A stretch of DNA of 14,028 bases. It comes from a virus. This document shows, piece after piece, positions 1-14,028 of the stretch. The DNA is taken from the UHGV virus genome UHGV-0127916; one strand, given 5' to 3'. The first letter of the stretch is position 1; each line of letters opens with the position of its first letter. The notes beneath the pieces were generated by a model. It was not told where the DNA came from. It did not search any database and saw nothing but the letters and a program-made list of their open reading frames with translations. Both the position numbers and the translations under genes were made by a program.

Positions 1-2
1 CG

Positions 3-173
3 GAGCACGTCGTAGAGGCATTTAAAAAAGGTGAGCTAACACGACATCAAGTAGTAATGAATCGTAATATGGCAAGGAGTCGAGGTTATCCAGAGCGAGC
101 AGCTTGCTTCAATGAAGCACTCAAGATTATTGATGAATTAAGAAAAAATGAAAAAGAATCTGAAACAGAGTAA
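3..173 (+). CDS. 3' end of an upstream gene (partial, hypothetical protein)
   Basis: An open frame in codon phase 3,6,9... runs from the window edge to TAA at 171-173 (...ALKIIDELRKNEKESETE*). The RBS of the next gene follows 8 nt later. It is missing from the ORF track because no start codon lies in the window. Confidence 0.35.
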   Translation, partial: EHVVEAFKKGELTRHQVVMNRNMARSRGYPERAACFNEALKIIDELRKNEKESETE

Positions 174-192
174 AGAATAGAAGGAGAAAACT

Positions 193-360
193 ATGAGCGA
201 AACTAAGAAACCAATTCCGCGCACTTACCTACACGTTGACCCTGAAATCTTCAAGGTTTTATTTGCTGAAGCCAAGAAAAGGCAAATTATGGTCAGTGAT
301 TTGATGTTAGAAATCATTACTGAAGCAGCAGAGAACATCAAACAAAAAAAGGGTAAGTGA
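193..360 (+). CDS. Small ribbon-helix-helix (Arc/CopG-like) DNA-binding protein, 55 aa
   Basis: ATG at 193 is preceded by AAGGAG (181-186) and the frame runs 55 codons to TGA at 358-360. The pattern RTYLHVDPEIFKVLFAEAKKRQIMVSDLMLEIITEAAE fits the strand-helix-helix layout of RHH repressors. This is a pattern-based call only. Confidence 0.5.
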   Translation: MSETKKPIPRTYLHVDPEIFKVLFAEAKKRQIMVSDLMLEIITEAAENIKQKKGK

Positions 361-411
361 TCCTCATTCACTTTAGTAGCGCATTAAGCGTGATTTATAA
401 GGAGATTTTTA

Positions 412-1065
412 ATGATTAATGAAGAACAATTTGTAAAAGTTCCTATGTGGATTCTAAAAATAAGCCAAGTAAACGGGCATAAATTTACAGATAGTGCTAA
501 AAACCTTTACTGCTATCTGAAAGGGTTTGATCGTGCATTTCCCTCTTACGCTAAGATAGGCGATGTTTTTGGCATAACACCAAGAGCAGCAGAGGAAAGG
601 GTTAAGAAATTGCTCGAAATGGGATTAATTATAAAAGATGCACGACCAGGAAGTTCTAATGTCTATCAAGTGGTAGATATTCCACAAGAAGAAGCTAGAC
701 AAGAAGCCCAGACACAACAAGAAGCTACTGTTAAAGCTGTTCCTGATCCGCTTCCACCTACAGAAGATAATAAACAGCCTTCTTTTGATGTTCTTGATGA
801 TTGGGATGCGCCTTTGCCGTGGGAGACGGAAGAAACACCTGTTTCATCAAGTGAAAAGGTAGCTAATGATAATGAGGAGGATGTGTTAGAAAATTTTGCC
901 TCTCTTATCATCCAGGAGAAGAATACCAGAACAGGAGGAGCATCCTTTCTAGAATTTGCAACATCGTTAGCCTATAAGCACAGGTTAAAGCTACCAAATG
1001 GTATTGAGGCATATTTTGCTAAGAAACATCCCAAAGTATATGAAGACTTTGATATTCCATTTTAA
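412..1065 (+). CDS. HTH-domain protein with acidic C-terminal half; putative replication-initiator or regulator
   Basis: 217-aa ORF with AAGGAG at 399-404, 7 nt before the ATG. The N-terminal ~90 aa resemble winged-HTH domains of phage/plasmid Rep or regulator proteins; the rest is acidic and Pro-rich. The function is inferred. Confidence 0.75.
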   Translation: MINEEQFVKVPMWILKISQVNGHKFTDSAKNLYCYLKGFDRAFPSYAKIGDVFGITPRAAEERVKKLLEMGLIIKDARPGSSNVYQVVDIPQEEARQEAQTQQEATVKAVPDPLPPTEDNKQPSFDVLDDWDAPLPWETEETPVSSSEKVANDNEEDVLENFASLIIQEKNTRTGGASFLEFATSLAYKHRLKLPNGIEAYFAKKHPKVYEDFDIPF

Positions 1066-1076
1066 TAAGGAGGGTT

Positions 1077-1355
1077 ATGATTCAATATTTAGTAAAAAAT
1101 CAAGTAGACAGAATTCAGTGTAATGACACAGGAAAACGCATCTACGAAACACTTGCTTACCTCTATAAAGGAAAGCCAACACCGCTAAAATATAGCGATG
1201 TGTTACATCGAGCAGCTTGCTCTGAAGATGGTTTAAAATTCTGGCTTAGACAGCTATCAAATTTCGGTGTTATAGAGATTAAAGAATTATCTTTCTCTAC
1301 ATTCAATCTCAAAAGACTAGATAAAGAAATAGAATTCATCTATTCCACTCTCTAA
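1077..1355 (+). CDS. Hypothetical protein, 92 aa
   Basis: ORF with AGGAGG at 1068-1073 just upstream of the ATG, starting 12 nt after the previous stop. No recognisable motif. Confidence 0.7.
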   Translation: MIQYLVKNQVDRIQCNDTGKRIYETLAYLYKGKPTPLKYSDVLHRAACSEDGLKFWLRQLSNFGVIEIKELSFSTFNLKRLDKEIEFIYSTL

Positions 1356-1487
1356 AATCTCTCTATGTAATTAAAATATAAAAGGAAAACATTATTATGA
1401 TAGTAGCTATGTATTGGTTATTGTTCTTTATCACGTTAGAAGCATATTTCGGGGTGTTTTCCTTTAAAAGAAAAGGAAAAGTAAATA

Positions 1488-1898
1488 ATGGCAAAAAGAA
1501 AAAACAACGTTGTTAAGAAAATCGGTGATTCAGCTTCTCTTCTAAGTAAACCTAAATCTATTCTAAGACGCAAAGACTTTAAAGAGCTAGTTACGCTCAC
1601 CAAGCAAAATAGCGCCCCTGGCGAATGGAAAACAGAGATCATAGAACATTCTCCCTCTGTGCCTTGTGGAGATGAATTTAACGCCTTACAAGAAATCTTA
1701 TCTTCAACACCTGGCGTATTCTGGAAACCTAGAAAAAGAAAAGAGTATATCGTTGATAGCTCTGATTTACGCAAATACCAGATTTTAGGATTTGAAGATT
1801 ATAATCACTACGTCGGTTATCTCGCCACCAATGGCCTAAATAATTTAGTCCCTGAATTCCAAATTTTAGATGGTGCTGATCACTATGGAGACTTTTAA
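1488..1898 (+). CDS. Hypothetical protein, 136 aa (basic N-terminus)
   Basis: ORF with AAGGA at 1473-1477. It is in the same orientation and tightly packed with its neighbours, and its stop at 1896-1898 abuts the next start. Confidence 0.65.
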   Translation: MAKRKNNVVKKIGDSASLLSKPKSILRRKDFKELVTLTKQNSAPGEWKTEIIEHSPSVPCGDEFNALQEILSSTPGVFWKPRKRKEYIVDSSDLRKYQILGFEDYNHYVGYLATNGLNNLVPEFQILDGADHYGDF

Positions 1899-1899
1899 T

Positions 1900-2238
1900 A
1901 TGAACAAAAACACGTATGACACAATTTACTCACTAATTAATTATTATGAGGATGATTACCTCCTGCCTTTAAACCGTGCTGAACTTGAAGCATACAGAGA
2001 AAACACGCCAGCGGCACTCAATGAGGCGTTTAAACACTGGGATTTAGCTGTGAATGCCTTGGAGCAACTCTCTAAGCGTGTAGAGATGCTCTGTAAGCGT
2101 GAGAACGCATATCTAACAGCGGATCAGATATGGGAGCTATCAAACTGGATAGAAGATATTGAATCTGATGTTCGCTATGTGGGAGATGGCCTTATCGAAC
2201 TAGCTCAACGCTTAGGCGCTGCTATCACAGAAGAATAA
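1900..2238 (+). CDS. Hypothetical small acidic helical protein, 112 aa
   Basis: I prefer ATG at 1900 (MNKNTYD...) over the ORF-track start at 1870, because GGAG at 1888-1891 sits 8 nt upstream and the previous gene ends at 1898. The protein has about 24 Asp/Glu against 11 Lys/Arg. Confidence 0.65.
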   Translation: MNKNTYDTIYSLINYYEDDYLLPLNRAELEAYRENTPAALNEAFKHWDLAVNALEQLSKRVEMLCKRENAYLTADQIWELSNWIEDIESDVRYVGDGLIELAQRLGAAITEE

Positions 2239-2267
2239 AAAAAGCAACAAAAAAGTTGTAAAATATC

Positions 2268-2296
2268 TTGACATTTCATATATTGTATGTTAATAT
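2268..2296 (+). promoter_or_regulatory. Near-consensus sigma70 promoter: TTGACA, 17-nt spacer, TGn-TAATAT (extended -10)
   Basis: TTGACA at 2268-2273, a 17-nt spacer, TG at 2288-2289 and TAATAT at 2291-2296, with an A-rich tract upstream. It lies in a 350-bp non-coding gap and faces the downstream operon. Confidence 0.6.
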
Positions 2297-2496
2297 AATT
2301 ATATAGGGGTGATTATTTTTCCTTTATTGGTTCGATATTAAAAATTCTTCTTGTCGTTAAAGGGGAGTAAAATCTCCGCTCCCCGCTTCTCCTCCTTAAG
2401 TAAATACTGTGTCATTATTACCTCTTTTTTCCTTTGTTATGCATACATCTTGGAGTATGCATAACATAGGGTAATTACATAGGTACAAGTTAATAA

Positions 2497-2526
2497 AAGG
2501 CGGCTTTAAATGCTGCCTTTTATTTT
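2497..2526 (+). terminator. Intrinsic terminator inside the leader, about 200 nt downstream of the promoter
   Basis: 8-bp stem AAGGCGGC / GCTGCCTT with one G-U pair and a 7-nt loop TTTAAAT, followed by TTATTTT. Confidence 0.5.
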
Positions 2527-2588
2527 GCCCGTTATGCAACTTAAAAGTTGTATTTCTTACTTTAAACAAGGTAACAAGGTTTATATAA

Positions 2589-2801
2589 ATGTTGTTCTTA
2601 AATGATAAAGAGCAAATCATCAAGTATAAAGATGAAATGCTGAAAATTAATCCACAAATTACCGAAATGGTAGCTAAATACGCTGGGTGTTCTGTAGAGG
2701 AAGTAGAAAGATGTGTTGAAAAATATTTTTCTCCTTCTTCTCCGTCTACACCTTCCCTTAATGAATTAATCAAATTAAAAGCTAAGGAGATTACTAAATG
2801 A
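2589..2801 (+). CDS. Hypothetical protein, 70 aa
   Basis: ORF whose stop overlaps the next start as ATGA (2798-2801), suggesting translational coupling. Its own RBS is weak (AAGG about 11 nt upstream). Confidence 0.5.
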   Translation: MLFLNDKEQIIKYKDEMLKINPQITEMVAKYAGCSVEEVERCVEKYFSPSSPSTPSLNELIKLKAKEITK

Positions 2802-3160
2802 TTATTGATTTAGACACTCTGTTTCCAGTTCGAAAGACTTTCACAGATATTGTAAGTTATTGTACTGATCCGTTTGCCTCTGTAGAAAGCAAGGTTTTTG
2901 CTTCTCTTCCTGCTGATGTTGAATGCGGAGACTTGATCACCAGCACTGGCGCTAAATATGAATCAGGAGATGATATTTATGTTGTTATGAGTGAATTTGT
3001 AACGGCTGGAGAAAACAAGCCTGTAGATGTGCTACGTAGCAATGCTGGCCTTGTATGCATCAAAGCTGATGCGCTGAATGCTGTAAGTGAAGCAGCAAAA
3101 ACAGCACTAATTAAAAAAGGCTTTCAGCTTGAAGGCTTCCATTCTGTTTTCACTTCTTAA
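2798..3160 (+). CDS. Hypothetical acidic protein, 120 aa
   Basis: AAGGAG at 2784-2789, 8 nt before the ATG; coupled to the upstream ORF. Confidence 0.7.
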   Translation: MIIDLDTLFPVRKTFTDIVSYCTDPFASVESKVFASLPADVECGDLITSTGAKYESGDDIYVVMSEFVTAGENKPVDVLRSNAGLVCIKADALNAVSEAAKTALIKKGFQLEGFHSVFTS

Positions 3161-3178
3161 TAAAAGGAATAATAATAA

Positions 3179-4207
3179 ATGATTCTAGGTAATGATTACG
3201 TTGATTTAGCTCCTCTGTTCTCTGCGCATAGCACTAGAAACTATCTGCTTTCTACTCTTGATTTTACGGATTCTGTAGGGGTCACATCTCATAAAGTAGC
3301 TGTTTCCCAGCTTGTCGAAAGCAACGAATCTCTCTTTAACAAAGAGACAAGCCGTTTTAGTTCTGAACACAATGTTACTAAGCGAGAACAAGGTAAAGAA
3401 TGGCTGATTGAAATCCCGTATTTTCTTCGTGAAGATGTGATCCGTCCTTCTGATGTTCAAGGCAAGCGTAAGCCTGGCACTGATTTTCAGGAAACACTTA
3501 CTGATATCTATGCTGACTATGTTGCTAAACACCACGTAGCGTATCAGCGTACAAAAGAGAGCGTATTGGCTGCATCTCTGTTTAGTGGTCGCACCTACAC
3601 GCCTAAAACTGATGATGTTCTTATCGAGTGGGGCAAGCTGTTTAACGTATCAGCTATGAAAGCCACTGTGAACGCTTCCAGCACTGACACCACGAAGATT
3701 TTTAAAGAATTTGATCAGATTGCTACTGACATTATCGAAAAAGCACAAAGCCAGGCGGCTGCTGTAGAGCGTATTGTTGTTTTCTGTAAACCGGAAGCCT
3801 TCTCTGCAATTCGATTCTCTGCTGGTATGGCAAACGCATTCCAGTATGTAAGCCCACTGGAAGAAGGGAACGTTGTGTATCAGCGTCGTGACCTGCTGCC
3901 AGGAGTGACAGCGTTCACTATTCCAGGAACTAACATTGATGTTATTAAACTGGTAGATCCGCTACACCTGGCACATATGACCGCAGACGCTGTAGCTGTG
4001 CCTAAATTCGCTAAAGGCTCTAACGTATATCAGAACATCTACGGGGCTGCTTCCAGCACCTTTGAACTGATTAATGCCGCTCCTGCTGAGGTGTATAGCT
4101 ATAGCTATGAATCTTCTCGTGGTGATGCTGTTAACGTTGTTACAGAGAATAGCCAGATGGTTGTAAACCACGGTGTAGGCTTCTCCGTTCAAATCACTGT
4201 TAAATAA
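3179..4207 (+). CDS. Hypothetical protein, 342 aa; possibly a major structural (capsid-like) protein
   Basis: Long ORF with an RBS and no nucleotide-binding or catalytic motif that I can see. It is followed directly by a very strong intrinsic terminator, as highly expressed structural genes often are. The structural assignment is speculative. Confidence 0.8.
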   Translation: MILGNDYVDLAPLFSAHSTRNYLLSTLDFTDSVGVTSHKVAVSQLVESNESLFNKETSRFSSEHNVTKREQGKEWLIEIPYFLREDVIRPSDVQGKRKPGTDFQETLTDIYADYVAKHHVAYQRTKESVLAASLFSGRTYTPKTDDVLIEWGKLFNVSAMKATVNASSTDTTKIFKEFDQIATDIIEKAQSQAAAVERIVVFCKPEAFSAIRFSAGMANAFQYVSPLEEGNVVYQRRDLLPGVTAFTIPGTNIDVIKLVDPLHLAHMTADAVAVPKFAKGSNVYQNIYGAASSTFELINAAPAEVYSYSYESSRGDAVNVVTENSQMVVNHGVGFSVQITVK

Positions 4208-4225
4208 TATTTTAACGTGTAATAG

Positions 4226-4260
4226 AGGCGTGGCGTGTATTCACGCTTCGCCTTTTTTTT
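4226..4260 (+). terminator. Strong rho-independent terminator (attenuator) after the 342-aa gene
   Basis: GC-rich stem of about 11 bp (GGCGTGGCGTG / CACGCTTCGCC, one mismatch, one G-U) with loop TATT, followed by T8 at 4253-4260. Confidence 0.75.
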
Positions 4261-4293
4261 ATTTATTTTTAAATTTTGAGAGGTGATTAAAAT

Positions 4294-4497
4294 ATGGAAG
4301 TGATTTTGAAATCAAAAAATGGGGTGCACGTACATTTAGATGCTAATGATTCTAGAGGCTTGTTAAATCTGAAATATCTATGTTCTCTCTTAGATGTGCC
4401 CTATGAAGGCGTAAAAGCCCGTATGTTCAGATTAAACGAGAGTATTGATCAGGCTCTACACCATTTCTTAAGTAAAGAAGGTGGTAAAAATGATTAA
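4294..4497 (+). CDS. Hypothetical protein, 67 aa
   Basis: ORF with AGGTGA at 4281-4286, 7 nt before the ATG. Confidence 0.55.
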   Translation: MEVILKSKNGVHVHLDANDSRGLLNLKYLCSLLDVPYEGVKARMFRLNESIDQALHHFLSKEGGKND

Positions 4498-4513
4498 TAT
4501 AAGGGGATTTTAA

Positions 4514-6343
4514 ATGTTAGAAATTAACACTTCTAAAATTAAGAACACAGTTACATTTAGTGTAGATAAAGACAGCTTGAAAAAAGCGAAAGACTCTATT
4601 ACAAGCCTAAAAGAATTCACTGATAATATCAAGCCAGCTAAACTGAGGTTTGATAATGTCACTAAAGGCTATAAGAAAGCACAAAGCGAAGTAGACAAGA
4701 TTGCTCAACAGAAAGCTAAAACAGAAAAGCAAAATCAAAGAGCACAAGCTGCCGCAGCAAGAGCACAGGCAAGGCAACAGCAACAAATAGCAGCACGTAA
4801 AGAGAAAGCAGAATTAAAGCTCCTCGATGTTTCAAGCTCTATCAGTGCAATGCACCGCCTCTCTGTAGCGGAACAATACAAAGCTATTGCACAGGCTAGA
4901 GAGATAGCGAAACAATACGAACAAGGCGCTATCTCGCTTGCACGTATGAATAGCCAGATGAAACGCTTACAACAGCAACAACGTAAGATTAATGGCAACA
5001 GAAAAGCTCAATTAGCCCCCGTTAAGGGAGGATCAGGGAATTCCGCCACGATGGGCGCTCTGTTATTTGGAGGCGCTACGGCGGCGGCTGGCGTGATGGC
5101 TGTAAGTAAAGCCTCTGAATTTATGGCTAACAGCTTTGCTAACGCAGAGACACAAGGAGAGCTAATCCAACGTGCAAGGCTTGGCGGTGTAGACGTTAAC
5201 CAGATGTATAACATTACAGAATGGGCGTATAGAAACGGCGTTGACTCTATGATGGGTGATCAAGGGGCTAGGAAATACCTGGATCAGATGAAAGATGTTA
5301 GGGAACGTGCCGCAAAATCCTACAGTGAAGCTGAATTGGTGAAAGATAAGAAAACCGGAAAATCTGAATGGAAAGGCGGTGATAACGCTATTAATGAACT
5401 TCTAAACATCGGAGTTATTAACAAAAGCGACCTTAAAAAATTTGCTGATAATCCAGCCGGATTAATTTCTAAGGCTGTTAATGGAATGATGAAAAAAGGG
5501 TTTTCAGACTCCCAAATTGGACAACGTTTAGAAGACCTGGGCGATGATTTGATGCTTACATCAAAATATTGGCAACGTTCCGTTAAAGATGTACAAGAAA
5601 GTATTAATCAGCAAAAAGCCTCTGGAAAATGGCTAACAGAAACACAGCAAGAATCTATCGTTAAATTCAGAGAGCTAAACAGACAGCTTTCACAGCTTTC
5701 TGATGCAAGACAAGTAGCATTCGTAGACGGCTTTATGAAATCTCTTGATCCAAAAGTAACGGAAGAGTTTATGAAAAACCTTTCTAATCTCACTCCGTAT
5801 TTTACGAAGCTAGGAGAAGCTACAGGAAGTCTCTTTGAAGCTATTATGAAGATTGTAAACTGGTTTAATCGTAATGATGATAAGACAGATGCTATTCAGA
5901 AAAATATGGGTGATGCACCGCCATTAAGCAATGAAGGAATGAAGCAGAATCTTTCTAAGCTCGTTCCTGACCAATATAAAGGCGCTGGCACTGCAACAAC
6001 TACACCTGATAATAGTCATTCTCTCTTTAACACGATTAAGGGATTGCTTTTCGATGATAATTCTTCTGTGTCAGATGTAAAAATGTCAGTCAGCGAAGCA
6101 CCGATAACCAATCTCAAACAGGGGGCTTTAAATAATCTTGCAATGACAACTCCGGCTTATAATTTATCTCCTGTATTCAATCTGAATCCTACATTTGAAG
6201 TGGTAACGGAGGTTCCGCTTACTATTAATTCTGACACATCCAGATTAAGCGATTATGTGGATTTTACAGCGAGAGCAAGTCGGGATAGCTTCTTGAAATC
6301 ATTAACATTAACCAGCTTGTCAGGACAATCTAACGGCGGGTAA
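4514..6343 (+). CDS. Hypothetical 609-aa protein: N-terminal Ala/Gln-rich coiled coil, Gly/Ala-rich hydrophobic segment, large C-terminal domain (tape-measure- or ejection-protein-like)
   Basis: AAGGGG at 4501-4506, 7 nt before the ATG. Features read from the translation: QNQRAQAAAARAQARQQQQIAARKEK, then GGSGNSATMGALLFGGATAAAGVMAVS. No enzymatic motif recognised. Confidence 0.8.
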   Translation: MLEINTSKIKNTVTFSVDKDSLKKAKDSITSLKEFTDNIKPAKLRFDNVTKGYKKAQSEVDKIAQQKAKTEKQNQRAQAAAARAQARQQQQIAARKEKAELKLLDVSSSISAMHRLSVAEQYKAIAQAREIAKQYEQGAISLARMNSQMKRLQQQQRKINGNRKAQLAPVKGGSGNSATMGALLFGGATAAAGVMAVSKASEFMANSFANAETQGELIQRARLGGVDVNQMYNITEWAYRNGVDSMMGDQGARKYLDQMKDVRERAAKSYSEAELVKDKKTGKSEWKGGDNAINELLNIGVINKSDLKKFADNPAGLISKAVNGMMKKGFSDSQIGQRLEDLGDDLMLTSKYWQRSVKDVQESINQQKASGKWLTETQQESIVKFRELNRQLSQLSDARQVAFVDGFMKSLDPKVTEEFMKNLSNLTPYFTKLGEATGSLFEAIMKIVNWFNRNDDKTDAIQKNMGDAPPLSNEGMKQNLSKLVPDQYKGAGTATTTPDNSHSLFNTIKGLLFDDNSSVSDVKMSVSEAPITNLKQGALNNLAMTTPAYNLSPVFNLNPTFEVVTEVPLTINSDTSRLSDYVDFTARASRDSFLKSLTLTSLSGQSNGG

Positions 6344-6376
6344 TTCCCGCCATAACATTACAAGGAAATTATTATT

Positions 6377-7090
6377 ATGGCGACCGCCGGGATTTTAACC
6401 ATACGTGCAGCAAATACTCCAGAACAACACGTTCAAGCGGTTTATAACGCGGAACAAGATATAAACTCTACAAAAAACGAAAATAGCAAAGCCAATAAAA
6501 CAAAAGGAGAAAATGGATTTGCTATTGTTACCAGTGGGCTGGCATCTTCTGGTAATGACGTTTATGAAAATTATATGGCACTGGCCTTTGACAGTGTAGA
6601 CGATGTAAACGTAAAACGTCAAGCAGATGTTACTAGCTACCCCGTAGAGAATGGTGCTACTGTATCGGATCACGTTCAAATTAAAAACAATAAGTTTGCT
6701 CTTAAGGGGCGTATCACTGAAACACCGATTAAAAGCGATCCTGGCTTGTTAAAGAGTGCAGGGGTGAACGGGAACAGAAGATCATTAGCTATAGACTACC
6801 TGAATCAGATTATGGACAGTAGACAGCCTTTTCTTCTTGTTACAGAAAATAAAACTTTTGAGAACGTTGTTTTAACAGGCATCGAATACACAGAAGAGGC
6901 AAGCGAATCCCTGGTATTTGATCTTAGCTTTGAGCAGATCAGGCTCGTTTCGTATGGCACAGTAAACACTGTAGCTATCAAAACACAGCCATCTAAGAAC
7001 ATCGGGGCTAATATGAAAAAACGTGTTAACACTGAAAAATCAAGTAGTGAAGGTGAAGACACTATTACGCCTGCCTTTAAACAGGAATAG
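6377..7090 (+). CDS. Hypothetical protein, 237 aa
   Basis: ORF with AAGGA at 6362-6366; last gene of the rightward array, ending 80 nt before the convergent integrase gene. Confidence 0.75.
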   Translation: MATAGILTIRAANTPEQHVQAVYNAEQDINSTKNENSKANKTKGENGFAIVTSGLASSGNDVYENYMALAFDSVDDVNVKRQADVTSYPVENGATVSDHVQIKNNKFALKGRITETPIKSDPGLLKSAGVNGNRRSLAIDYLNQIMDSRQPFLLVTENKTFENVVLTGIEYTEEASESLVFDLSFEQIRLVSYGTVNTVAIKTQPSKNIGANMKKRVNTEKSSSEGEDTITPAFKQE

Positions 7091-7131
7091 CCGTAAACGC
7101 CTCTAAAACACTCTGTAACGATGTAATTATA

Positions 7132-7164
7132 AAAGAGGCTACCAATCTATGTTGAAGCCTCTTT
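7132..7164. terminator. Putative bidirectional terminator between the convergent operon and the integrase gene
   Basis: 9-bp stem AAAGAGGCT / AGCCTCTTT with a 15-nt loop, in the 80-bp gap between the stops at 7090 (+) and 7172 (-). The loop is large and the U-tract weak. Confidence 0.4.
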
Positions 7165-7171
7165 ATTGCGT

Positions 7172-8443
7172 CTATGGCGTTGTTTTACGCCTTAAATTTG
7201 ATTTTTTATTGATTGATAAGCCTTTCTCTATTTCAGGGTAGCGTAGAAGCTCAATATAGTTTTTAAGCTCTACTGGAGAAGCTGCATTCTTGCTATATGT
7301 GCGGAATGTCTCTGTATTGCCGCGTGTATGGCCCAGGAGAAGGGCGATCCTGTCTTCTGGAATTTGATTTCGATCAAGAAGCTGTGCTACTCCGTGTCTC
7401 AGAGAATGAAACACCTTCCTTTCTGTTCCCTTTTCCCCTAAAGCCTTTCGTTTAGCTCTTGTAAATCTCTGCGTGTGCCACGTGGAACGTTTACCATCAG
7501 CACGCTCTGTAATGCTGGCGTGATAGAACAAAAAGCCATTATGAGGCTTTTCACGAAGAGATAACACCAATGGAGTGATAAGGCTATGCACAGGCACAAG
7601 ACGTGCCGCAGCTTTCGTTTTTCCCTGTGTGATTTCAAAACACAGCACACCTTCGATCTCTTTCACATCGTCTATTGTGAGACTTGCTATCTCATTGATC
7701 CGCATACCTGTATACATTCCGATCAGTGTTATATTTTGCATTTCTTCTTCATCAGCCAGCATTGAGAACACTTTTGCGAGTTCATCATTGCTAAAGGCTT
7801 CATAATTCACCTTGCTACTTTTAGCTTCAAGGCCGTGACCTCGCCAAGGGTTATCTTGTGGTGCATCGTGGTAGCGGTTACGAGCAAGATCCCAAATCTG
7901 GGCTAATGCACTAATGTAGTTTTGTATTGTTTGTGGTGCTTTCTCATTTTTTAGGTTATCTAACCAGCTAGTAACAATAGTTCGGTTAACGTCACGAAGC
8001 TGAACATCGCGTTTATTCAGATGTTCTAAGAGCACCTCTACGGCTTTGTTTGTCTTTGATAGCGTAGTTAGCTTGCGCTTCTCGCTAAACTGGAGAATGT
8101 ACTGATCCCGCATATTTAAAAGAGAAGGGCAGCCAATAGAAGAATCATTAAATGATTCAGATACTTGAAATGCATATGTTCCAGCTTTCCGTAGTTCTGT
8201 AATAATTTGCTCGATCTTCGATGTTTTCTCACGTTGAGGCTTTAGCTTGTTACGTAGTTTTATCCATTCCAGCGCCACCGCATCACGGAACAACCGTGCT
8301 TCTCGAATATCTCTTGTGCCTGTGCTTTTAACGTAGCTACACCGCCCACCAAATAGATGACGCATATACTTAGGTATAGCGATCCTTACCAGATAGTTTC
8401 CGCAAGAATCTGAAATTAAATAACGATCTCTCTTGAAACTCAT
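7172..8443 (-). CDS. int: Tyrosine-type site-specific integrase, 423 aa
   Basis: The C-terminal half shows the tyrosine recombinase catalytic pattern: Arg in TGMRINE, HSLRH (H-x-x-R), LLGHTRGN and the Tyr in FRTYSK. It lies directly beside the tRNA-derived att core. Confidence 0.9.
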   Translation of the reverse strand: MSFKRDRYLISDSCGNYLVRIAIPKYMRHLFGGRCSYVKSTGTRDIREARLFRDAVALEWIKLRNKLKPQREKTSKIEQIITELRKAGTYAFQVSESFNDSSIGCPSLLNMRDQYILQFSEKRKLTTLSKTNKAVEVLLEHLNKRDVQLRDVNRTIVTSWLDNLKNEKAPQTIQNYISALAQIWDLARNRYHDAPQDNPWRGHGLEAKSSKVNYEAFSNDELAKVFSMLADEEEMQNITLIGMYTGMRINEIASLTIDDVKEIEGVLCFEITQGKTKAAARLVPVHSLITPLVLSLREKPHNGFLFYHASITERADGKRSTWHTQRFTRAKRKALGEKGTERKVFHSLRHGVAQLLDRNQIPEDRIALLLGHTRGNTETFRTYSKNAASPVELKNYIELLRYPEIEKGLSINKKSNLRRKTTP

Positions 8444-8564
8444 ACAAACCCCGGCTATTTTGTCAGGGCTTTTGCACTTGATAGTGTACAGTGTGAAGTG
8501 TCGATGTGTTGTTAGTTTTGCTTTTGATTCAAAGCATTACAGGAGCTTGCTAGGCAAGCGAACG

Positions 8565-8607
8565 ACCGTAGAAATACGTGCCGGTTCGAGTCCGGCCTTC
8601 GGCACCA
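8565..8607 (+). other. 3' fragment of a tRNA-Leu gene (leuX-like); attR-type core, not an intact tRNA
   Basis: ACCGTAGAAATACGTGCCGGTTCGAGTCCGGCCTTCGGCACCA contains a canonical T-arm (GCCGG / TTCGAGT / CCGGC), the acceptor 3' strand CTTCGGC, discriminator A and CCA. No complementary GCCGAAG 5' acceptor strand occurs within about 120 nt upstream. As I recall it, this matches the 3' end of enterobacterial tRNA-Leu(CAA). Confidence 0.6.
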
Positions 8608-8624
8608 CATCGTATGCAAATCGA

Positions 8625-8647
8625 GTCGCTCAAGGGCGGCTTTTTTT
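8625..8647 (+). terminator. Intrinsic terminator 17 nt after the tRNA 3' end (orphaned tRNA terminator)
   Basis: Stem GTCGC / GCGGC (one G-U pair) with loop TCAAGG, followed by T7 at 8641-8647. Confidence 0.5.
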
Positions 8648-8831
8648 GTGTCTGGGATCCGTTAGTTACCTATCTTTCTCGCTATTTTAACTCTCTCAGG
8701 GCTAACCAATTCCAACCCATCGCAAACGAAAAATGTTGGTACAGGCGTTGGTATTTTCGGTTCGATATTAATTTGTATTAGCTCAGTCCTGATCTGACAG
8801 CTATCTGCCAGATCAGGTTCGGATTAATACA

Positions 8832-11800
8832 TTATATCTGCCCGCCTACACCTTTAAACTTCTCAATAAACGCGACGATCTTCTGGAAAACCGTCTGTTT
8901 TTTCGTCTTATATTGCGGATTTAACGGACTGAGTTTTGGCAATGTCTCGTTTAATTCCGTGCCATTTTCGGTGGCGTATTCACGTTTTAAAGACGTGCGA
9001 ATATAGCGTTTCGCCGCCTCTTCATTGAGATTTTCTTCTTTGATCAATGCTGCTGCTTCACGTTGCTGTTCACGTTGAGCAAAGGTAAAAAACGCGTCAA
9101 TGATGCTGGCTTTATCCGGCAAATCATCCAGGTTCGTTTGCTGAATAAAATCGACCACCAGACCCTCTTTCGCACGGTTCCCAAGGCTTGAACGAATTAA
9201 GCGTTTGACCTCTTCGGTCATTTCGCCCTTACCTTTGTTTTGTCTGTTGTGTTCGAAAATAAGTCCAAGGATATAATCCAGGTTTATTTCCTGAGACTTC
9301 AGCAAATCGACCTCAAAAACAACGTCATCCCAGTCAGTGGTTGATTTTTCTTTTTTCTCGGCTTCTTTCTCACGGCGCTGCCAGTCACGAATATCGTTAT
9401 AGGCAGAACGATAATCCTGAATCTTGCGAGCAGCAGGGAGACGAATTGTTTGCAATTCAGCGAGCTTTTCATCATCCACATAATGTTCTGCTTTGAATTT
9501 TTCTACCGCAACAGGATCGCTAAGATCGATTTGTTGCAGGGCTTTCAGCGTGGCAAATTCATCATAGTTTTGCAGGATGTTCTCGGCACGCAGGTATTCA
9601 CCAAACAGTTTAACGAAGTCTTTCTTCTCTTTTTCACTTTCAATACTGGCAGGGTCAGGGAACCGTTGTTCCAGTTCTGAAACTACTGTCATAAAGCCGC
9701 GTTTAGCTTCACCGGTGGTAGCATCAGTAAAGCCTTCCATATACTCTGCATAACTCTTTTCTAACACCACATTTTTGGTGTTTTTGTCACCAAACAGCGT
9801 TATGGCATCAATAGTTGAGCGTTCCAGATCCCGAAAAGTGACGATGTTACCGAAGGTTTTCGTAGCGTCATAAATGCGGTTGGTGCGGGAAAATGCCTGC
9901 ATCAGGCCGTGAAAACGCAGGTTTTTATCAACGAATAGCGTGTTCAATGTTGGAGCATCGAATCCGGTTAAAAACATCCCCACAACGATTAACAAGTCAA
10001 CATCCTGATTTTTAACCCGCTGAGCCAGGTCCCGATAGTAGTTCTGAAACCCCTTGCTATCAGTGCTGAAATTCATTTGAAAATGTTCGTTATACTCACG
10101 AATAGCGGCATCCAGAAACTCTTTAGCACTGCTGTCCATTGCACTGGTATCAAAAGTTTCATCGGAAACTTCACCAATGGCATTTTGTTCTTCATTAGCG
10201 GCAAAGGAGAAGATTGTCGCAACACGTAGTGGTTTATAGGTAGCAGATTTATTAGCGGCTTCCTCTTGTAACCGTTTAAACGTCGCGTAATAGGCTTTCG
10301 CGGCATCCACGCTGCTCACTGCCAGCATGGCATTAAAACCTTTGGAGCCGGGGTAAGTACGGTGGGTCTTCTGGCGGAAGTTGTTCAGGATATATTGCGT
10401 GATTTCCTGAATACGCATGGGATGAAGAAACGCCTGCTGATTTTCAGCCGCACTCAGTTTTTTCTCGTCAGTTTCTGTCTCTAAAGACTTAAACTGTGGC
10501 CGCACATCGTTGTAGTCCACCTTGAATTTGAGCACTTTTTCATCACGGATCGCATCGGTAATCACATACGAATGCAATTCACGGCCAAATACGCTGGCAG
10601 TCGTTTCTGAGCCTAAAGCGTTTTCCGGGAAAATAGGGGTACCGGTAAAACCAAACTGATAATAGCGTTTGAATTTCTTCTTCAGGTTTTTCTGCGCTTC
10701 TCCAAACTGGCTGCGGTGGCATTCATCAAATATAAACACCACTTGCTGATTGTATACAGGCAGGTCGCTTTCTGCTTTCATCAGGTTATTAAGTTTCTGA
10801 ATAGTGGTGACGATAATTTTGTTATCGTCCTTATCCAGATTTCGTTTTAGACCTGCGGTATTTTCCGAGCCGTTGACGCTGTCTGGCGAAAAACGCTGAT
10901 ATTCCTTCATGGTCTGGTAATCGAGGTCTTTCCTGTCGACCACAAAGAAAACTTTATCAATAAAGTCCAGTTCTGTTGCCAGCCGCGCGGCTTTAAAGCT
11001 GGTGAGGGTTTTACCAGAACCGGTAGTGTGCCATATAAAGCCACCGCTTTCGGGGTTAGACCAGTTTTTCGCTTTATAGGAGCTGTTGATTTTCCATAAG
11101 ATTCGTTCGGTAGCTGCAATCTGGTACGGTCGCATCACCAGTAGTGTCTGGCTACTGTCAAACACGCTGTAGTTCACCAGAACATTAAGCAGGGTATGTT
11201 TCTGGAAAAAGGTAGCGGTAAAGTCTTTGAGGTCTTTTATCAGCGTGTTGTCTGATTTCGCCCAGTTCATGGTGAAGTCAAAACTGTTTTTATCGCGCTT
11301 TGTGGTGTTGGCAAAATAACGGGTATCTGTGCCGTTAGAAATGACAAACAGTTGCAGATACTTAAACAGGGAATTTTCGCTGTTAAAACTCTCTTTACTG
11401 TAACGATGTATCTGGTTAAAGGCCTCACGAATCGCCACGCCGCGCTTTTTCAGTTCGATTTGTACCAGTGGTAAGCCATTAACCAGGATCGTGACGTCAT
11501 AACGGTTAGCATGAGAACCCGCCTGTTCAAACTGCTGGATAATCTGCACCTTATTGCGCATGAGATTCTTTTTATCTATCAGATAGATGTTCTCAAGACG
11601 CTCGTCATCAAAAATAAAGTCGCAAATATAGTCGATATGGATTTTACGGGTCTTATCCAGAATGCCATCGCTCGGGTTATCCAGATACTGCTCCGTGAAA
11701 CGCCGCCACTCGCTGTCATTAAACACCACACCATTGAGGCTCTGAAGCTGTTCCCGAACGTTGGCCAGCATCGCTGACTGTGATTTTACGGGTATAAATT

Positions 11801-11948
11801 CATAGCCCTGATTTTGCAGGTCCTGAATCAGTTCACGTTCCAGGTCCGATTCGCTCTGGTAGCTGTCGCCTGTTGGCTCAGCTTTGATGTACTTATCAAG
11901 AACGATAAAGTTATTGGATTCAGCAATGGTGTGTGTCTGATGAGTCAT
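8832..11948 (-). CDS. hsdR: Type I restriction enzyme R subunit (HsdR), 1038 aa; type IC/EcoR124-like by recollection
   Basis: PD-(D/E)xK nuclease motif (D...VQIELKK), helicase motif I TTGSGKT and motif II FIFDECH. The length and the N-terminus [14 protein letters not shown] match my recollection of EcoR124I HsdR. RBS AAGGA precedes the ATG. Confidence 0.95.
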
Positions 11949-12069
11949 AGCGCATCCTTTGTGCCGTCTGGCAAGGACCGGAAGGGGGGTAATGGTGACT
12001 TCCGGCGCGTAAAAAATAGTCTATATACTGACCGGGCGTTAAGGTGGCCCGATCGGTAGCAATGGTCAA

Positions 12070-12594
12070 TTAATTACTGACAGTTTCAGGTTTCGGGAAA
12101 CTGAACAGTAAATCACGGTAGTATTCGTATTGTTTCTGGCGCAACTCGATTTCACGCGGAAGACCTTCAGTGATGGAGTTGGTCAGGGTGTCGAATTTAT
12201 CGAGTATTTCGACAATGCGAGCTTGCCAGGTGAGTGGCGGTACAGGGATTGGGTATTTCATTATATCCTCTTTACTGCCACGCGGCATTTTTGCTCCTTT
12301 AGCATGCTGCATGTTGTATTCAAAGAATTTGTCATCTGCCAAAATCTGATATAGATATCTGGTATTTATTGAGCTATCTATGCAACGAATAACCAATACA
12401 TCGCCATTTGTTCCACCGATACAATCTGCTTGCCAAATTTTTTTCAAATATGGGCGGATATTCCCAATCAATATATCGTTAGGTATAAACTCCGTTAATT
12501 TACCTGATGTCGGTACATGATTAGATAATGATTTTCCTGCTCTGTTTTGCAGCAGATTATCTACGCCAACATAGATGATATGACCTTTATATAC
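12070..12594 (-). pseudogene. hsdS: Truncated hsdS: C-terminal ~174 codons (TRD2 plus conserved C-terminal helix) of a type I specificity subunit
   Basis: The frame is open from 12594 down to the stop at 12070-12072. The translation ...NDILIGNIRPYLKKIW...YPIPVPPLTWQARIVEILDKF...LRQKQYEYYRDLLFSF carries HsdS target-recognition-domain and C-terminal motifs. The N-terminal half is missing; the frame hits a stop at 12595-12597 inside the IS-proximal sequence. The ORF-track start at 12471 is a TTG. Confidence 0.75.
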
Positions 12595-14024
12595 TCACTA
12601 TAGCATTGGTGGGATATTCCAGAGGAGGTCATCATGCATTCGGAAAATATTGCGGCTTACGTCGGGCTGGATGTGCATAAAGAAACGTTGGCGGTTGCTA
12701 TTGCTGCACCTGAACGGCTTGGCGAAGTTCGTTATTATGGTACGATTAACAACGAAGCCCAGGCTGTACGTCGATTATTTCAGAAATTGCAGGGACTTTA
12801 CGGAAACATTCTTTCCTGCTATGAGGCTGGCCCCTGTGGTTTTGGGCTATATCATCAACTCACAGCGATGAATATAAAATGCCAGGTTATTGCCCCTTCC
12901 CGCATACCAAAATCACCGACAGACAGAATCAAAAATGATCATCGGGACGCAATTTCTCTCGCCAGGTTACTGCGGGCTGGAGAACTTACCCCTGTCTGGA
13001 TCCCTGACCTGACTCATGAAGCTATGCGGGATCTAATCAGAGCCCGTGCAGCAGCTAAACGAGACAGCAGAGTTGCCCGACAGCGAATTCTGAGCATGCT
13101 ATTGCGAACAGACAAACATTATGCAGGAAAGCACTGGACAGGAAAACATCGAACCTGGTTAGCTAATCAATCATTTAGTCAGCCATCTCAACAGATTGCT
13201 TTTCAACACTATTGTCAAAGTCTGGAGCAGATTGAAGATCGCATACTTCAACTCGACCAGGAAATATCTCGCCTGTTACCTGAGTGGTCTCTGTGCAATC
13301 TGGTCTGCCAGTTGCAGGCTCTTAAAGGTGTTGGTCAGCTAATTGCAATAACTCTGGTTGCTGAACTGGGTGATTTTTCGCGATTTTCCAATCCCAAACA
13401 GCTCATGGCTTTTCTGGGACTGGTGCCAGGTGAATATTCCAGTGGAAACAGTATTCGTCCCAGAGGAATAACAAAAGTTGGAAACAGCGAACTGAGACGT
13501 CTGCTTTACGAAGCCGCCTGGTCTTATCGTACACCTGCAAAAGTTGGGGCATGGCTTATATATTACCGACCGGACTCTGTAACACAATATTCCAAAGATA
13601 TTGCATGGAAAGCTCAACAACGATTGTGTTCTCGTTACCGAAGTCTGACAGCAAAAGGGAAAAAATCACAAGTAGCCATTACGGCGGTGGCTCGTGAGTT
13701 GACTGGATTTATGTGGGATATTGCACTTGCTGCCCAATCATCATTCAGTCAGCAGAAGCAAAATTAAACCCTGAAGCAGTCAGACACGGAATGAGTGATC
13801 CTCGTAAAAGAATTCAGGGAAGCCAGAATGCGCTAATACCTGCACGTAGAAAGAGGCCAGCTCACTGCGTAAATCGTCATGGGGCTAAAATCCCCGAATA
13901 AGAGTTTGTAAAATCCAAGATACAGTCTGACTGTTTCAGGTTCTTTAATCCGCGATATAACGAAGCTCCCGGAGCTGCGTAAGGTCTTTTTGGGCTTAAT
14001 ATTTGACAAAGGTCATAAGAATTC
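12572..14024 (+). mobile_element. IS110-family insertion sequence (IS1111-like layout); boundaries approximate
   Basis: Contains the DEDD transposase gene. A 10-bp inverted repeat TATGACCTTT (12579-12588) / AAAGGTCATA (14008-14017) brackets it. It has a short 5' end and a non-coding 3' end of at least 240 bp, and it interrupts hsdS. Confidence 0.6.
12634..13767 (+). CDS. IS110-family transposase/recombinase (DEDD RuvC-like N-domain plus C-terminal Tnp domain), 377 aa
   Basis: N-terminus YVGLDVHKETLAVAI and C-terminal LKGVGQLIAITLVAELGDFSRFSNPKQLMAFLGLVPGEYSSGNSIRPRGITKVGNSELRRLLYEAAW are hallmark IS110-family segments. GAGGAGG RBS lies 5 nt before the ATG. Confidence 0.95.
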   Translation: MHSENIAAYVGLDVHKETLAVAIAAPERLGEVRYYGTINNEAQAVRRLFQKLQGLYGNILSCYEAGPCGFGLYHQLTAMNIKCQVIAPSRIPKSPTDRIKNDHRDAISLARLLRAGELTPVWIPDLTHEAMRDLIRARAAAKRDSRVARQRILSMLLRTDKHYAGKHWTGKHRTWLANQSFSQPSQQIAFQHYCQSLEQIEDRILQLDQEISRLLPEWSLCNLVCQLQALKGVGQLIAITLVAELGDFSRFSNPKQLMAFLGLVPGEYSSGNSIRPRGITKVGNSELRRLLYEAAWSYRTPAKVGAWLIYYRPDSVTQYSKDIAWKAQQRLCSRYRSLTAKGKKSQVAITAVARELTGFMWDIALAAQSSFSQQKQN

Positions 14025-14028
14025 TTTT

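Follow-up and report, generated by a model that had tools for sequence, protein, structure and literature searches.

The stretch of DNA analysed here (hereafter the window, 14,028 nucleotides of the virus genome UHGV-0127916) contains, at positions 8444-8660, what is almost certainly the attR that formed when 12,491 bp were inserted in the 3' part of the Escherichia coli gene leuX, coding for tRNA-Leu(CAA). The insertion is made up of a 12,448-bp element plus one copy of a 43-bp core. The original prediction, made from the letters of the window, was that of an attR left by an element integrated in a tRNA-Leu gene, and it is now sustained by perfect core repeats, an intact leuX upstream and an exact empty site. 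The junction itself is an ordinary, textbook attR. It is of use because the limits of the element can be placed to the base from it, and because it supplies a 43-bp attB/attP core for an integrase subfamily so far not characterised. The coordinates of the features are collected in Table 1.

The exact 43-nt pattern ACCGTAGAAATACGTGCCGGTTCGAGTCCGGCCTTCGGCACCA was found once in the window (no match was expected from 200 shuffles) and corresponds to nt 43-85 of the 85-nt tRNA-Leu(caa) gene detected by ARAGORN in L001, L002, L003, L004 and L007. It starts in the final bases of the anticodon stem, takes in the long variable arm and the T arm, and ends with the 3' acceptor strand and CCA. The source gene is E. 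coli leuX; identity to annotated tRNA-Leu was 100% among the matches listed, and the block was matched in 5,422 of the 5,426 complete E. coli genomes. Its left limit is where identity to NC101 starts, while the right one is set by L004, which diverges at 8608, and by attL, which diverges right after CCA. No tRNA gene was predicted by ARAGORN over the whole window, and the Rfam tRNA model scored 15.7 bits at the fragment (gathering score, 29), aligning the T arm and 3' acceptor strand only. The tRNA 3' end with T arm, acceptor strand and CCA, devoid of its 5' half, had been recognised correctly, therefore, and there is no complete tRNA at the site. No RNA family reached the threshold in the junction, and leuX was the only one in the whole element. 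Promoter-like sites in the junction region were no more numerous than in shuffles, and we do not claim transcription of the fragment because the sole plus-strand site (8433-8461) is at chance level.

An intrinsic terminator begins 15 bases past the CCA, with a stem of 8 pairs (8623-8642) and a T7 run (8641-8647). The terminator scan and the fold of a 53-nt stretch (-16.9 kcal/mol, z = -2.5 versus shuffles) agree on this hairpin plus T7, which had also been noticed in the letters. An identical sequence is located directly 3' of the intact leuX in NC101. As in silico excision of the element restores the NC101 empty site exactly, the hairpin and its T7 are the native terminator of leuX, left beside the displaced fragment.

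The left end of the insertion was found on L003, a 188-kb metagenome-assembled E. coli contig that encodes the Rep-like protein of the window. L003 and window positions 1-11065 are identical at every base, and we treated L003 as the window's own contig or one indistinguishable from it. An intact tRNA-Leu(caa) is present at L003 5621-5705 (ARAGORN; 59.4 bits with the Rfam tRNA model), i.e., 3,884 bp left of the window start, on the side where it had been expected, and about 3.9 kb of the element plus attL are thus located left of the window. The tRNA at attL is identical in sequence to leuX of NC101 and CH4804, and its 3' end is the second copy of the core. On L003, the copies are at 5663 and 18154 (fragment 18154-18196), with a spacing of 12,491 bp. 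Neither of the two outcomes that would speak against the original prediction, a complete tRNA at the site or no second core at a plausible distance, was found.

The empty site came from genomes without the insert. In NC101, NGF1 and related strains, 100% identity to the window begins exactly at 8565 (for NC101, 5,464/5,464 bases across 8565-14028), and these and other empty-site strains have an annotated intact tRNA-Leu, the same terminator, and then hsdR. Excising L003 5706-18196 in silico gave a sequence in which 8,163/8,163 bases were identical to NC101, a full match in the comparison that had been proposed as a check. In a four-way alignment of attL (L003), attR (window), attB (NC101) and the attR of L004, common identity was confined to the 43 bp; attL consists of host-left, core and element arm, and attR of element arm, core and host-right. 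This swapping of flanks is the pattern predicted by site-specific recombination. L004 has the same element, with 4 differences in 8.6 kb, and another right flank from 8608, while CH4804 has this element between leuX and a complete hsdRSM, its capsid gene carrying an IS3. The comparison shows a clean insertion, recent relative to the NC101-type strains.

We propose that a circular element carried an attP with a 43-bp copy of the leuX 3' end, and that its 423-aa tyrosine integrase would have recombined attP with leuX (attB) somewhere inside these 43 bp. At attL, the outcome is nt 1-42 of the host leuX followed by the 43 bp, that is, an intact, identical tRNA gene behind its own promoter. At attR, it is the second 43-bp copy without a 5' half, followed by the leuX terminator and the old neighbour hsdR. 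Lacking promoter and 5' half, the displaced fragment would be an inert scar, and upon excision it would become a recombination partner again. Present-day mobility of the element is plausible, judging from the intact int, the perfect cores and the near-identical copies beside different flanks. The reconstructed attP junction reads GGCAAGCGAACG, the 43-bp core and TTAACGCTAATC. As an exact 67-mer, it was absent from viral, metagenome and genome contigs, among which assemblies rarely capture excised forms, and a 325-nt attP construct had no place covering at least 80% of it in the 5,426 complete genomes.

Table 1. Features of the window, with positions counted from its first letter
Feature	Position	Strand	Evidence
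Right-hand 8.56 kb of the integrated 12,448-bp element	1-8564	.	L003 identity; NC101 identity only from 8565
Rep-initiator-like HTH protein gene	412-1065		phrog_270 7e-11
gpE-type major capsid gene	3179-4207		PF03864 3e-14, phrog_29
phi92 gp134 (tape measure) homologue, 609 aa	4514-6343		27-53% identity
phi92 gp135 homologue, Dit-like tail-tube initiator	6377-7090		60% identity
Tyrosine integrase, 423 aa	7172-8443	-	PF00589 E = 8e-17, DUF6538, Phage_int_SAM_5
attR element-side arm (one arm of the former attP)	8444-8564	.	Identical in L004 attR; absent from empty site
att core, displaced leuX 3' end	8565-8607	+	Exact direct repeat of attL tRNA nt 43-85
Native leuX intrinsic terminator, orphaned	8623-8647	+	Scan, fold, NC101 identity
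Pre-insertion flank	8608-14028	.	Inside NC101-identical 8565-14028; Pfam domains, NC101 annotation
hsdR, type I restriction R subunit	8832-11948	-	Pfam, NC101 annotation
hsdS fragment	12070-12573 (ORF 12070-12471)	-	Pfam, NC101 annotation
ISEc45 IS110-family transposase gene	12634-13767	+	Pfam, NC101 annotation

The catalytic region of the integrase can be aligned with XerA (5hxy), and the conserved R, HxxR and H positions fall into register. The fragment had been described as lying directly after the integrase gene; the two do adjoin, 121 bp apart, but it is the start codon and not the end of the gene that faces the fragment, and transcription runs away from the junction. The arm in between presumably holds the int 5' leader. 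The element also encodes a small serine recombinase, and every NCBIfam match of the integrase and the resolvase was under its cut-off. No excisionase-like or AlpA-like gene was recognised among the element ORFs; the small ORFs gave no Pfam match over threshold, and no Xis, AlpA or TerS was identified among them.

A sharp change of base composition at the junction had been reported as well, and this did not hold: for 500 bp to either side, the GC contents are 41.7% and 42.7% (39.8% and 43.3% for 200 bp). Larger stretches differ more (39.3% for 1-8564 and 44.4% for 8608-14028), and the core chromosome left of leuX has 53.3%. The right flank is itself low-GC accessory DNA, and composition therefore gives no mark of the junction. 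Consequently, the description as an element/host junction is right in that there is an insertion boundary, but what begins there is accessory DNA and not the core chromosome. The main compositional discontinuity in the window is the strand switch at about 7100, not the att site; AT skew turns from positive to negative near 7000-7200, where coding moves to the minus strand (integrase, then hsdR). Within the flank, hsdS is split by ISEc45 (12070-13767) exactly as in NC101, while the hsdS of CH4804 is intact.

The low GC content of the flank has a bearing on how the junction is to be read, since the right flank could be an older leuX island, in which case the fragment would separate two tandem islands and be an element/element boundary. 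Several features fit this reading, namely, the difference in GC with the chromosome left of leuX (44.4% versus 53.3%), the type I restriction-modification genes and IS110-family element of the flank, to which relatives add AbiE-like, McrB-like and other defence genes before the core nanM/fim genes, and the variation by strain of the region downstream of leuX, with a P4-type integrase there in L004. Tandem arrays at one tDNA are also known (PMC4383910). However, there is no integrase beside leuX in the NC101-type flank, and a search of the 45 kb of L001 that reach to fimG, tolerating 3 mismatches over 23 nt, gave no further leuX 3' fragment, so that the hsd region has no recognisable att boundary of its own. 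We regard an older island as unlikely, if well worth keeping in mind, and it would refine the main explanation, not take its place, because the element inserted next to a flank that was already there. As regards this insertion event, the hsd region is resident DNA.

The remaining alternatives do concern the insertion. A decayed or truncated tRNA-Leu pseudogene unrelated to the integrase, with the hairpin as the terminator of the dead gene, would likewise show a 3' half without a 5' half. Yet the 43 nt have zero decay with respect to leuX, identity to the empty site starts at the very base of their breakpoint, and the element recurs with equal breakpoints beside different flanks. Removing the DNA between both copies gives back NC101 exactly, which refutes the pseudogene and leaves it with a practically negligible probability. 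It is also quite improbable, although less extremely so, that the occupied leuX locus was imported by homologous recombination or generalised transduction, with no action of the integrase in this lineage. The structure of the junction would be the same either way, and the excised form went undetected in the contig collections and the 5,426 complete genomes. Nevertheless, both flanks are 100% identical to NC101 (5.7 kb on the left and 5.4 kb on the right), so that the donor of such an import would need identical flanks. In addition, the integrase ORF is intact, both cores are perfect, and copies with 4 differences in 8.6 kb beside unrelated right flanks point to a recent site-specific insertion, the reading that we prefer.

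Islands of the Islander type (Hudson, Lau and Williams 2015) are marked at their ends by a regenerated tDNA and a displaced 3' fragment, the latter being present in 3,760 of 3,919 islands (PMC4383910). With them, the element shares the intact tRNA at one end, the co-oriented 3' tDNA fragment at the other, the tyrosine integrase inside the interval and the base-exact boundaries, here with a precise empty site, and we found no difference in kind. The 43-bp block of identity exceeds the mode of 20-25 bp in Klebsiella islands (bioRxiv 10.1101/2020.11.02.365908). It is also longer than the repeats of two sister elements, which have the same orientation as the leuX element and other integrase modules. 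The one at glyU in L005 has an integrase 37% identical and a 23-bp repeat from the T loop to CCA, and the one at thrW has a 20-bp repeat, which starts inside the T loop and stops one base beyond CCA. Both repeats fit the T-loop class of integration sublocations, as summarised in bioRxiv 10.1101/2020.11.02.365908, while the leuX block reaches 20 bp further 5', across the variable arm.

The junction between this int and attR was found in 69 of the 5,426 complete E. coli genomes, and at least 80% of the element backbone in 242 of them (ca. 4%). Many relatives match the backbone only to window position 7714, inside the integrase gene (approximately codon 243), and these sit at other tRNA genes, e.g., thrW in BEN2908. 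Since backbone identity ends inside the integrase and the relatives are at other tRNAs, it appears that attP and the N-terminal half of the integrase are swapped as one module, with the C-terminal catalytic half probably staying with the backbone.

The gene leuX also hosts islands with P4-type integrases, such as phage P4, the intB region of KpLE2 in K-12 and PAI II of the uropathogenic strain 536. They resemble the element in having the same target gene and in the same use of its 3' end. However, the integrase of the element has a DUF6538-type N terminus and no Arm-DNA-bind_3 domain. Moreover, int is next to the intact tRNA and co-oriented with it in P4-type islands, whereas here it occupies the opposite end from the intact tRNA and is transcribed away from the fragment. 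In L004, attR is followed (18197-19665) by a different leuX terminator, which we take to be K-12-like, and by a P4-type integrase (Arm-DNA-bind_3, Phage_int_M), and thus two unrelated integrase systems are found there in tandem at leuX.

The gene content of the element includes a major capsid gene, homologues of two tail-assembly genes of phage phi92 and a putative replication module. The capsid protein is only 22-25% identical to any phage capsid protein. The genes of gp134 and gp135 are neighbours in phi92 too, and a 67-aa ORF upstream of the tape-measure homologue has no similarity to phi92 gp133. No portal, terminase, head-tail connector, sheath or tube gene was detected in the element. 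To the left of the window, a stretch of ca. 2 kb without called genes (L003 7594-9573) contains a 23-bp x 3.6 iteron-like tandem repeat at 8260-8343 (ACAGAATTCTGTTAGACACCCCC) and AT-rich short repeats at 8341-8402. Together, these look like a replication origin, and the iteron-like stretch is 1.6 kb upstream of the Rep-initiator-like gene. Screening with PADLOC gave no defence system matches for 10 element proteins, and five cargo proteins (orf99, Rep-like, capsid, tape-measure and Dit-like) had no match at all in NCBIfam. In IMG/VR, we found 12 loci with the capsid gene, which we took as prophage calls on isolate genomes, judging by the style of their accessions. All of their contigs (19.6-76 kb) exceed the 12.5-kb element in length, and the loci are therefore uninformative as evidence of packaging.

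Two further links connect the element to virulent phages. Window positions 181-419 and 699-765 have 99.6% and 97% nucleotide identity, respectively, to the virulent phage muut (Justusliebigvirus), and a 55-aa ORF at 193-360 is 100% identical to muut_153. Such near-identity implies that DNA has recently passed between the element and a virulent phage. The other link is an intergenic 46-nt stretch ca. 2.6 kb left of the window start (L003 6972-7017), which matches phi92 318-363 on the opposite strand at 44/46 nt, 40 of them in one exact run. The direct terminal repeat of phi92 is annotated at 1-343, and the match therefore runs from the final 26 nt of the repeat into the unique bases that come first after it, across the concatemer junction at which a genome end is generated. 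In the phi92-like phage BME3, the terminal repeat was determined by PhageTerm to be 342 bp (PMC12210895). We found the 46-nt sequence in 62 phage records (phi92-like phages and relatives), at 318-363 in phi92, W22, PHB05, VEcB and UAB_1, and the records of phi92 and UAB_1 annotate this position as left terminal repeat. It is kept in 16 of 19 element-bearing loci irrespective of the integrase and is absent from the empty site. No mimic of the left boundary of the phi92 repeat was found in the element. On this evidence, the 46-nt stretch is a probable packaging-site mimic. Phage P4, similarly, copies the packaging site (cos) of its helper P2. The likeness to satellites that copy a helper site is in the copied terminal sequence (44/46 nt, at the phi92 repeat boundary), with the difference that the putative helpers here would be virulent myoviruses of 145-150 kb with terminal repeats, instead of temperate cos or pac phages.

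At this point, the element looks like an undescribed parasite of phi92-type virulent phages. The most economical reading would make it a satellite of phi92-like virulent phages, or a parasite at the least, with a copy of the boundary used in their packaging. In its complete form, which we put forward tentatively and at somewhat less than an even chance, this would be an undescribed family of ca. 12.5-kb satellites or parasites of phi92-like virulent E. coli myoviruses (Justusliebigvirus and relatives). They would be packaged via the copied boundary of the helper terminal repeat, build or modify particles with their own major capsid protein and their tape-measure and tail-tube-initiator homologues, and have spread over leuX, glyU and thrW by swaps of the integrase N-terminal half and attP. 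As an alternative, the tail homologues might serve a decoy or defence role. We found no description in the literature of this element, nor of any satellite of phi92-like or rV5-like phages. What is found in a common E. coli island is the union of a capsid gene, two phi92-like tail-assembly homologues, a Rep/iteron module and a copy of a terminal-repeat boundary. If it is indeed a satellite, it would be the first that we found in the literature to be linked to phi92-like virulent phages. Since phi92-like phages are widely isolated for phage therapy (e.g., PMC12210895), it would also be a candidate factor in whether they succeed or fail on clinical strains.

From sequence comparison, the element fits none of the satellite families considered (P4-like, PICI and cfPICI). 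With satellites and cfPICIs, it has in common a size within 10-15 kb, an integrase with a tRNA att site and an iteron replication module, and with cfPICIs, its own major capsid gene. P4-like satellites have a P4-type integrase and a core of psu-delta-sid, alpA, epsilon and alpha (a primase gene); the integrase of the element is of another type, and its ORFs had no Pfam or PHROG match to any component of this P4 core. The PICI core consists of an integrase, an AlpA/MerR/Stl regulator, a primase-replicase, a capsid-morphogenesis gene and TerS, with no tail genes (PMC10085698). In the element, the integrase is present, a Rep-initiator-like HTH protein is found instead of a primase, AlpA and TerS were undetected, and there are tail homologues. 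cfPICIs (compared from PMC10085698 and bioRxiv 10.1101/2022.09.08.507074) have their own capsid, portal, protease, head-tail adaptor/connector, TerL, TerS and HNH, again with no tail genes (PMC10085698). Of these, the element has the major capsid gene; a portal, a terminase and a connector all went undetected, and there are tape-measure and Dit-like genes. Tail genes are "forbidden" in the PICI and cfPICI models, in contrast to the tape-measure and tail-tube-initiator homologues that the element carries. PLE of Vibrio cholerae and the PICMIs of Vibrionaceae are satellites of virulent phages (PMC10945586, PMC10803314). The element is like them in being a chromosomal island with an apparent tie to a lineage of virulent phages, with which it has exchanged sequence (the 55-aa ORF shared with muut). 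No sequence relationship was found between the element and either of them. PLE is described as remodelling the coat protein of its helper and has no major capsid protein of its own, unlike the element (PMC10945586), and PICMIs are devoid of capsid-remodelling genes (PMC10803314).

Some minor features of the attachment site arms should be mentioned. Downstream of the regenerated leuX at attL (L003 5706-6350), a consensus scan gave no intrinsic terminator. A minus-strand promoter-like site at L003 5779 to 5751 would face the integrase only once the element is circularised, and it is no better than chance. In the element-side arm of attR, neither int promoter nor arm-site signals were above chance. 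The sequence (T)ATCAAGT was considered as an arm-type integrase site, with 3 copies in the reconstructed attP (window 8476-8483, inverted, L003 5737 and L003 5794), and rejected as not significant, because 44 of 2,000 shuffles yield an 8-mer with three or more copies; no 8-mer reaches 3 copies in the reconstructed attP itself. The same arm has a GCTTGC-TAG-GCAAGC palindrome (8545-8559) and, at 8524-8533, the sequence TTGATTCAAA, equal to 10 nt of the leuX anticodon stem-loop. It stands 31 nt before the core, versus 4 nt in leuX, and its probability by chance would be ca. 0.004 (a rough personal estimate, not a computed value). TTGATTCAAA and the palindrome may be the relic of a longer tRNA-like attP, or they may be there by chance.
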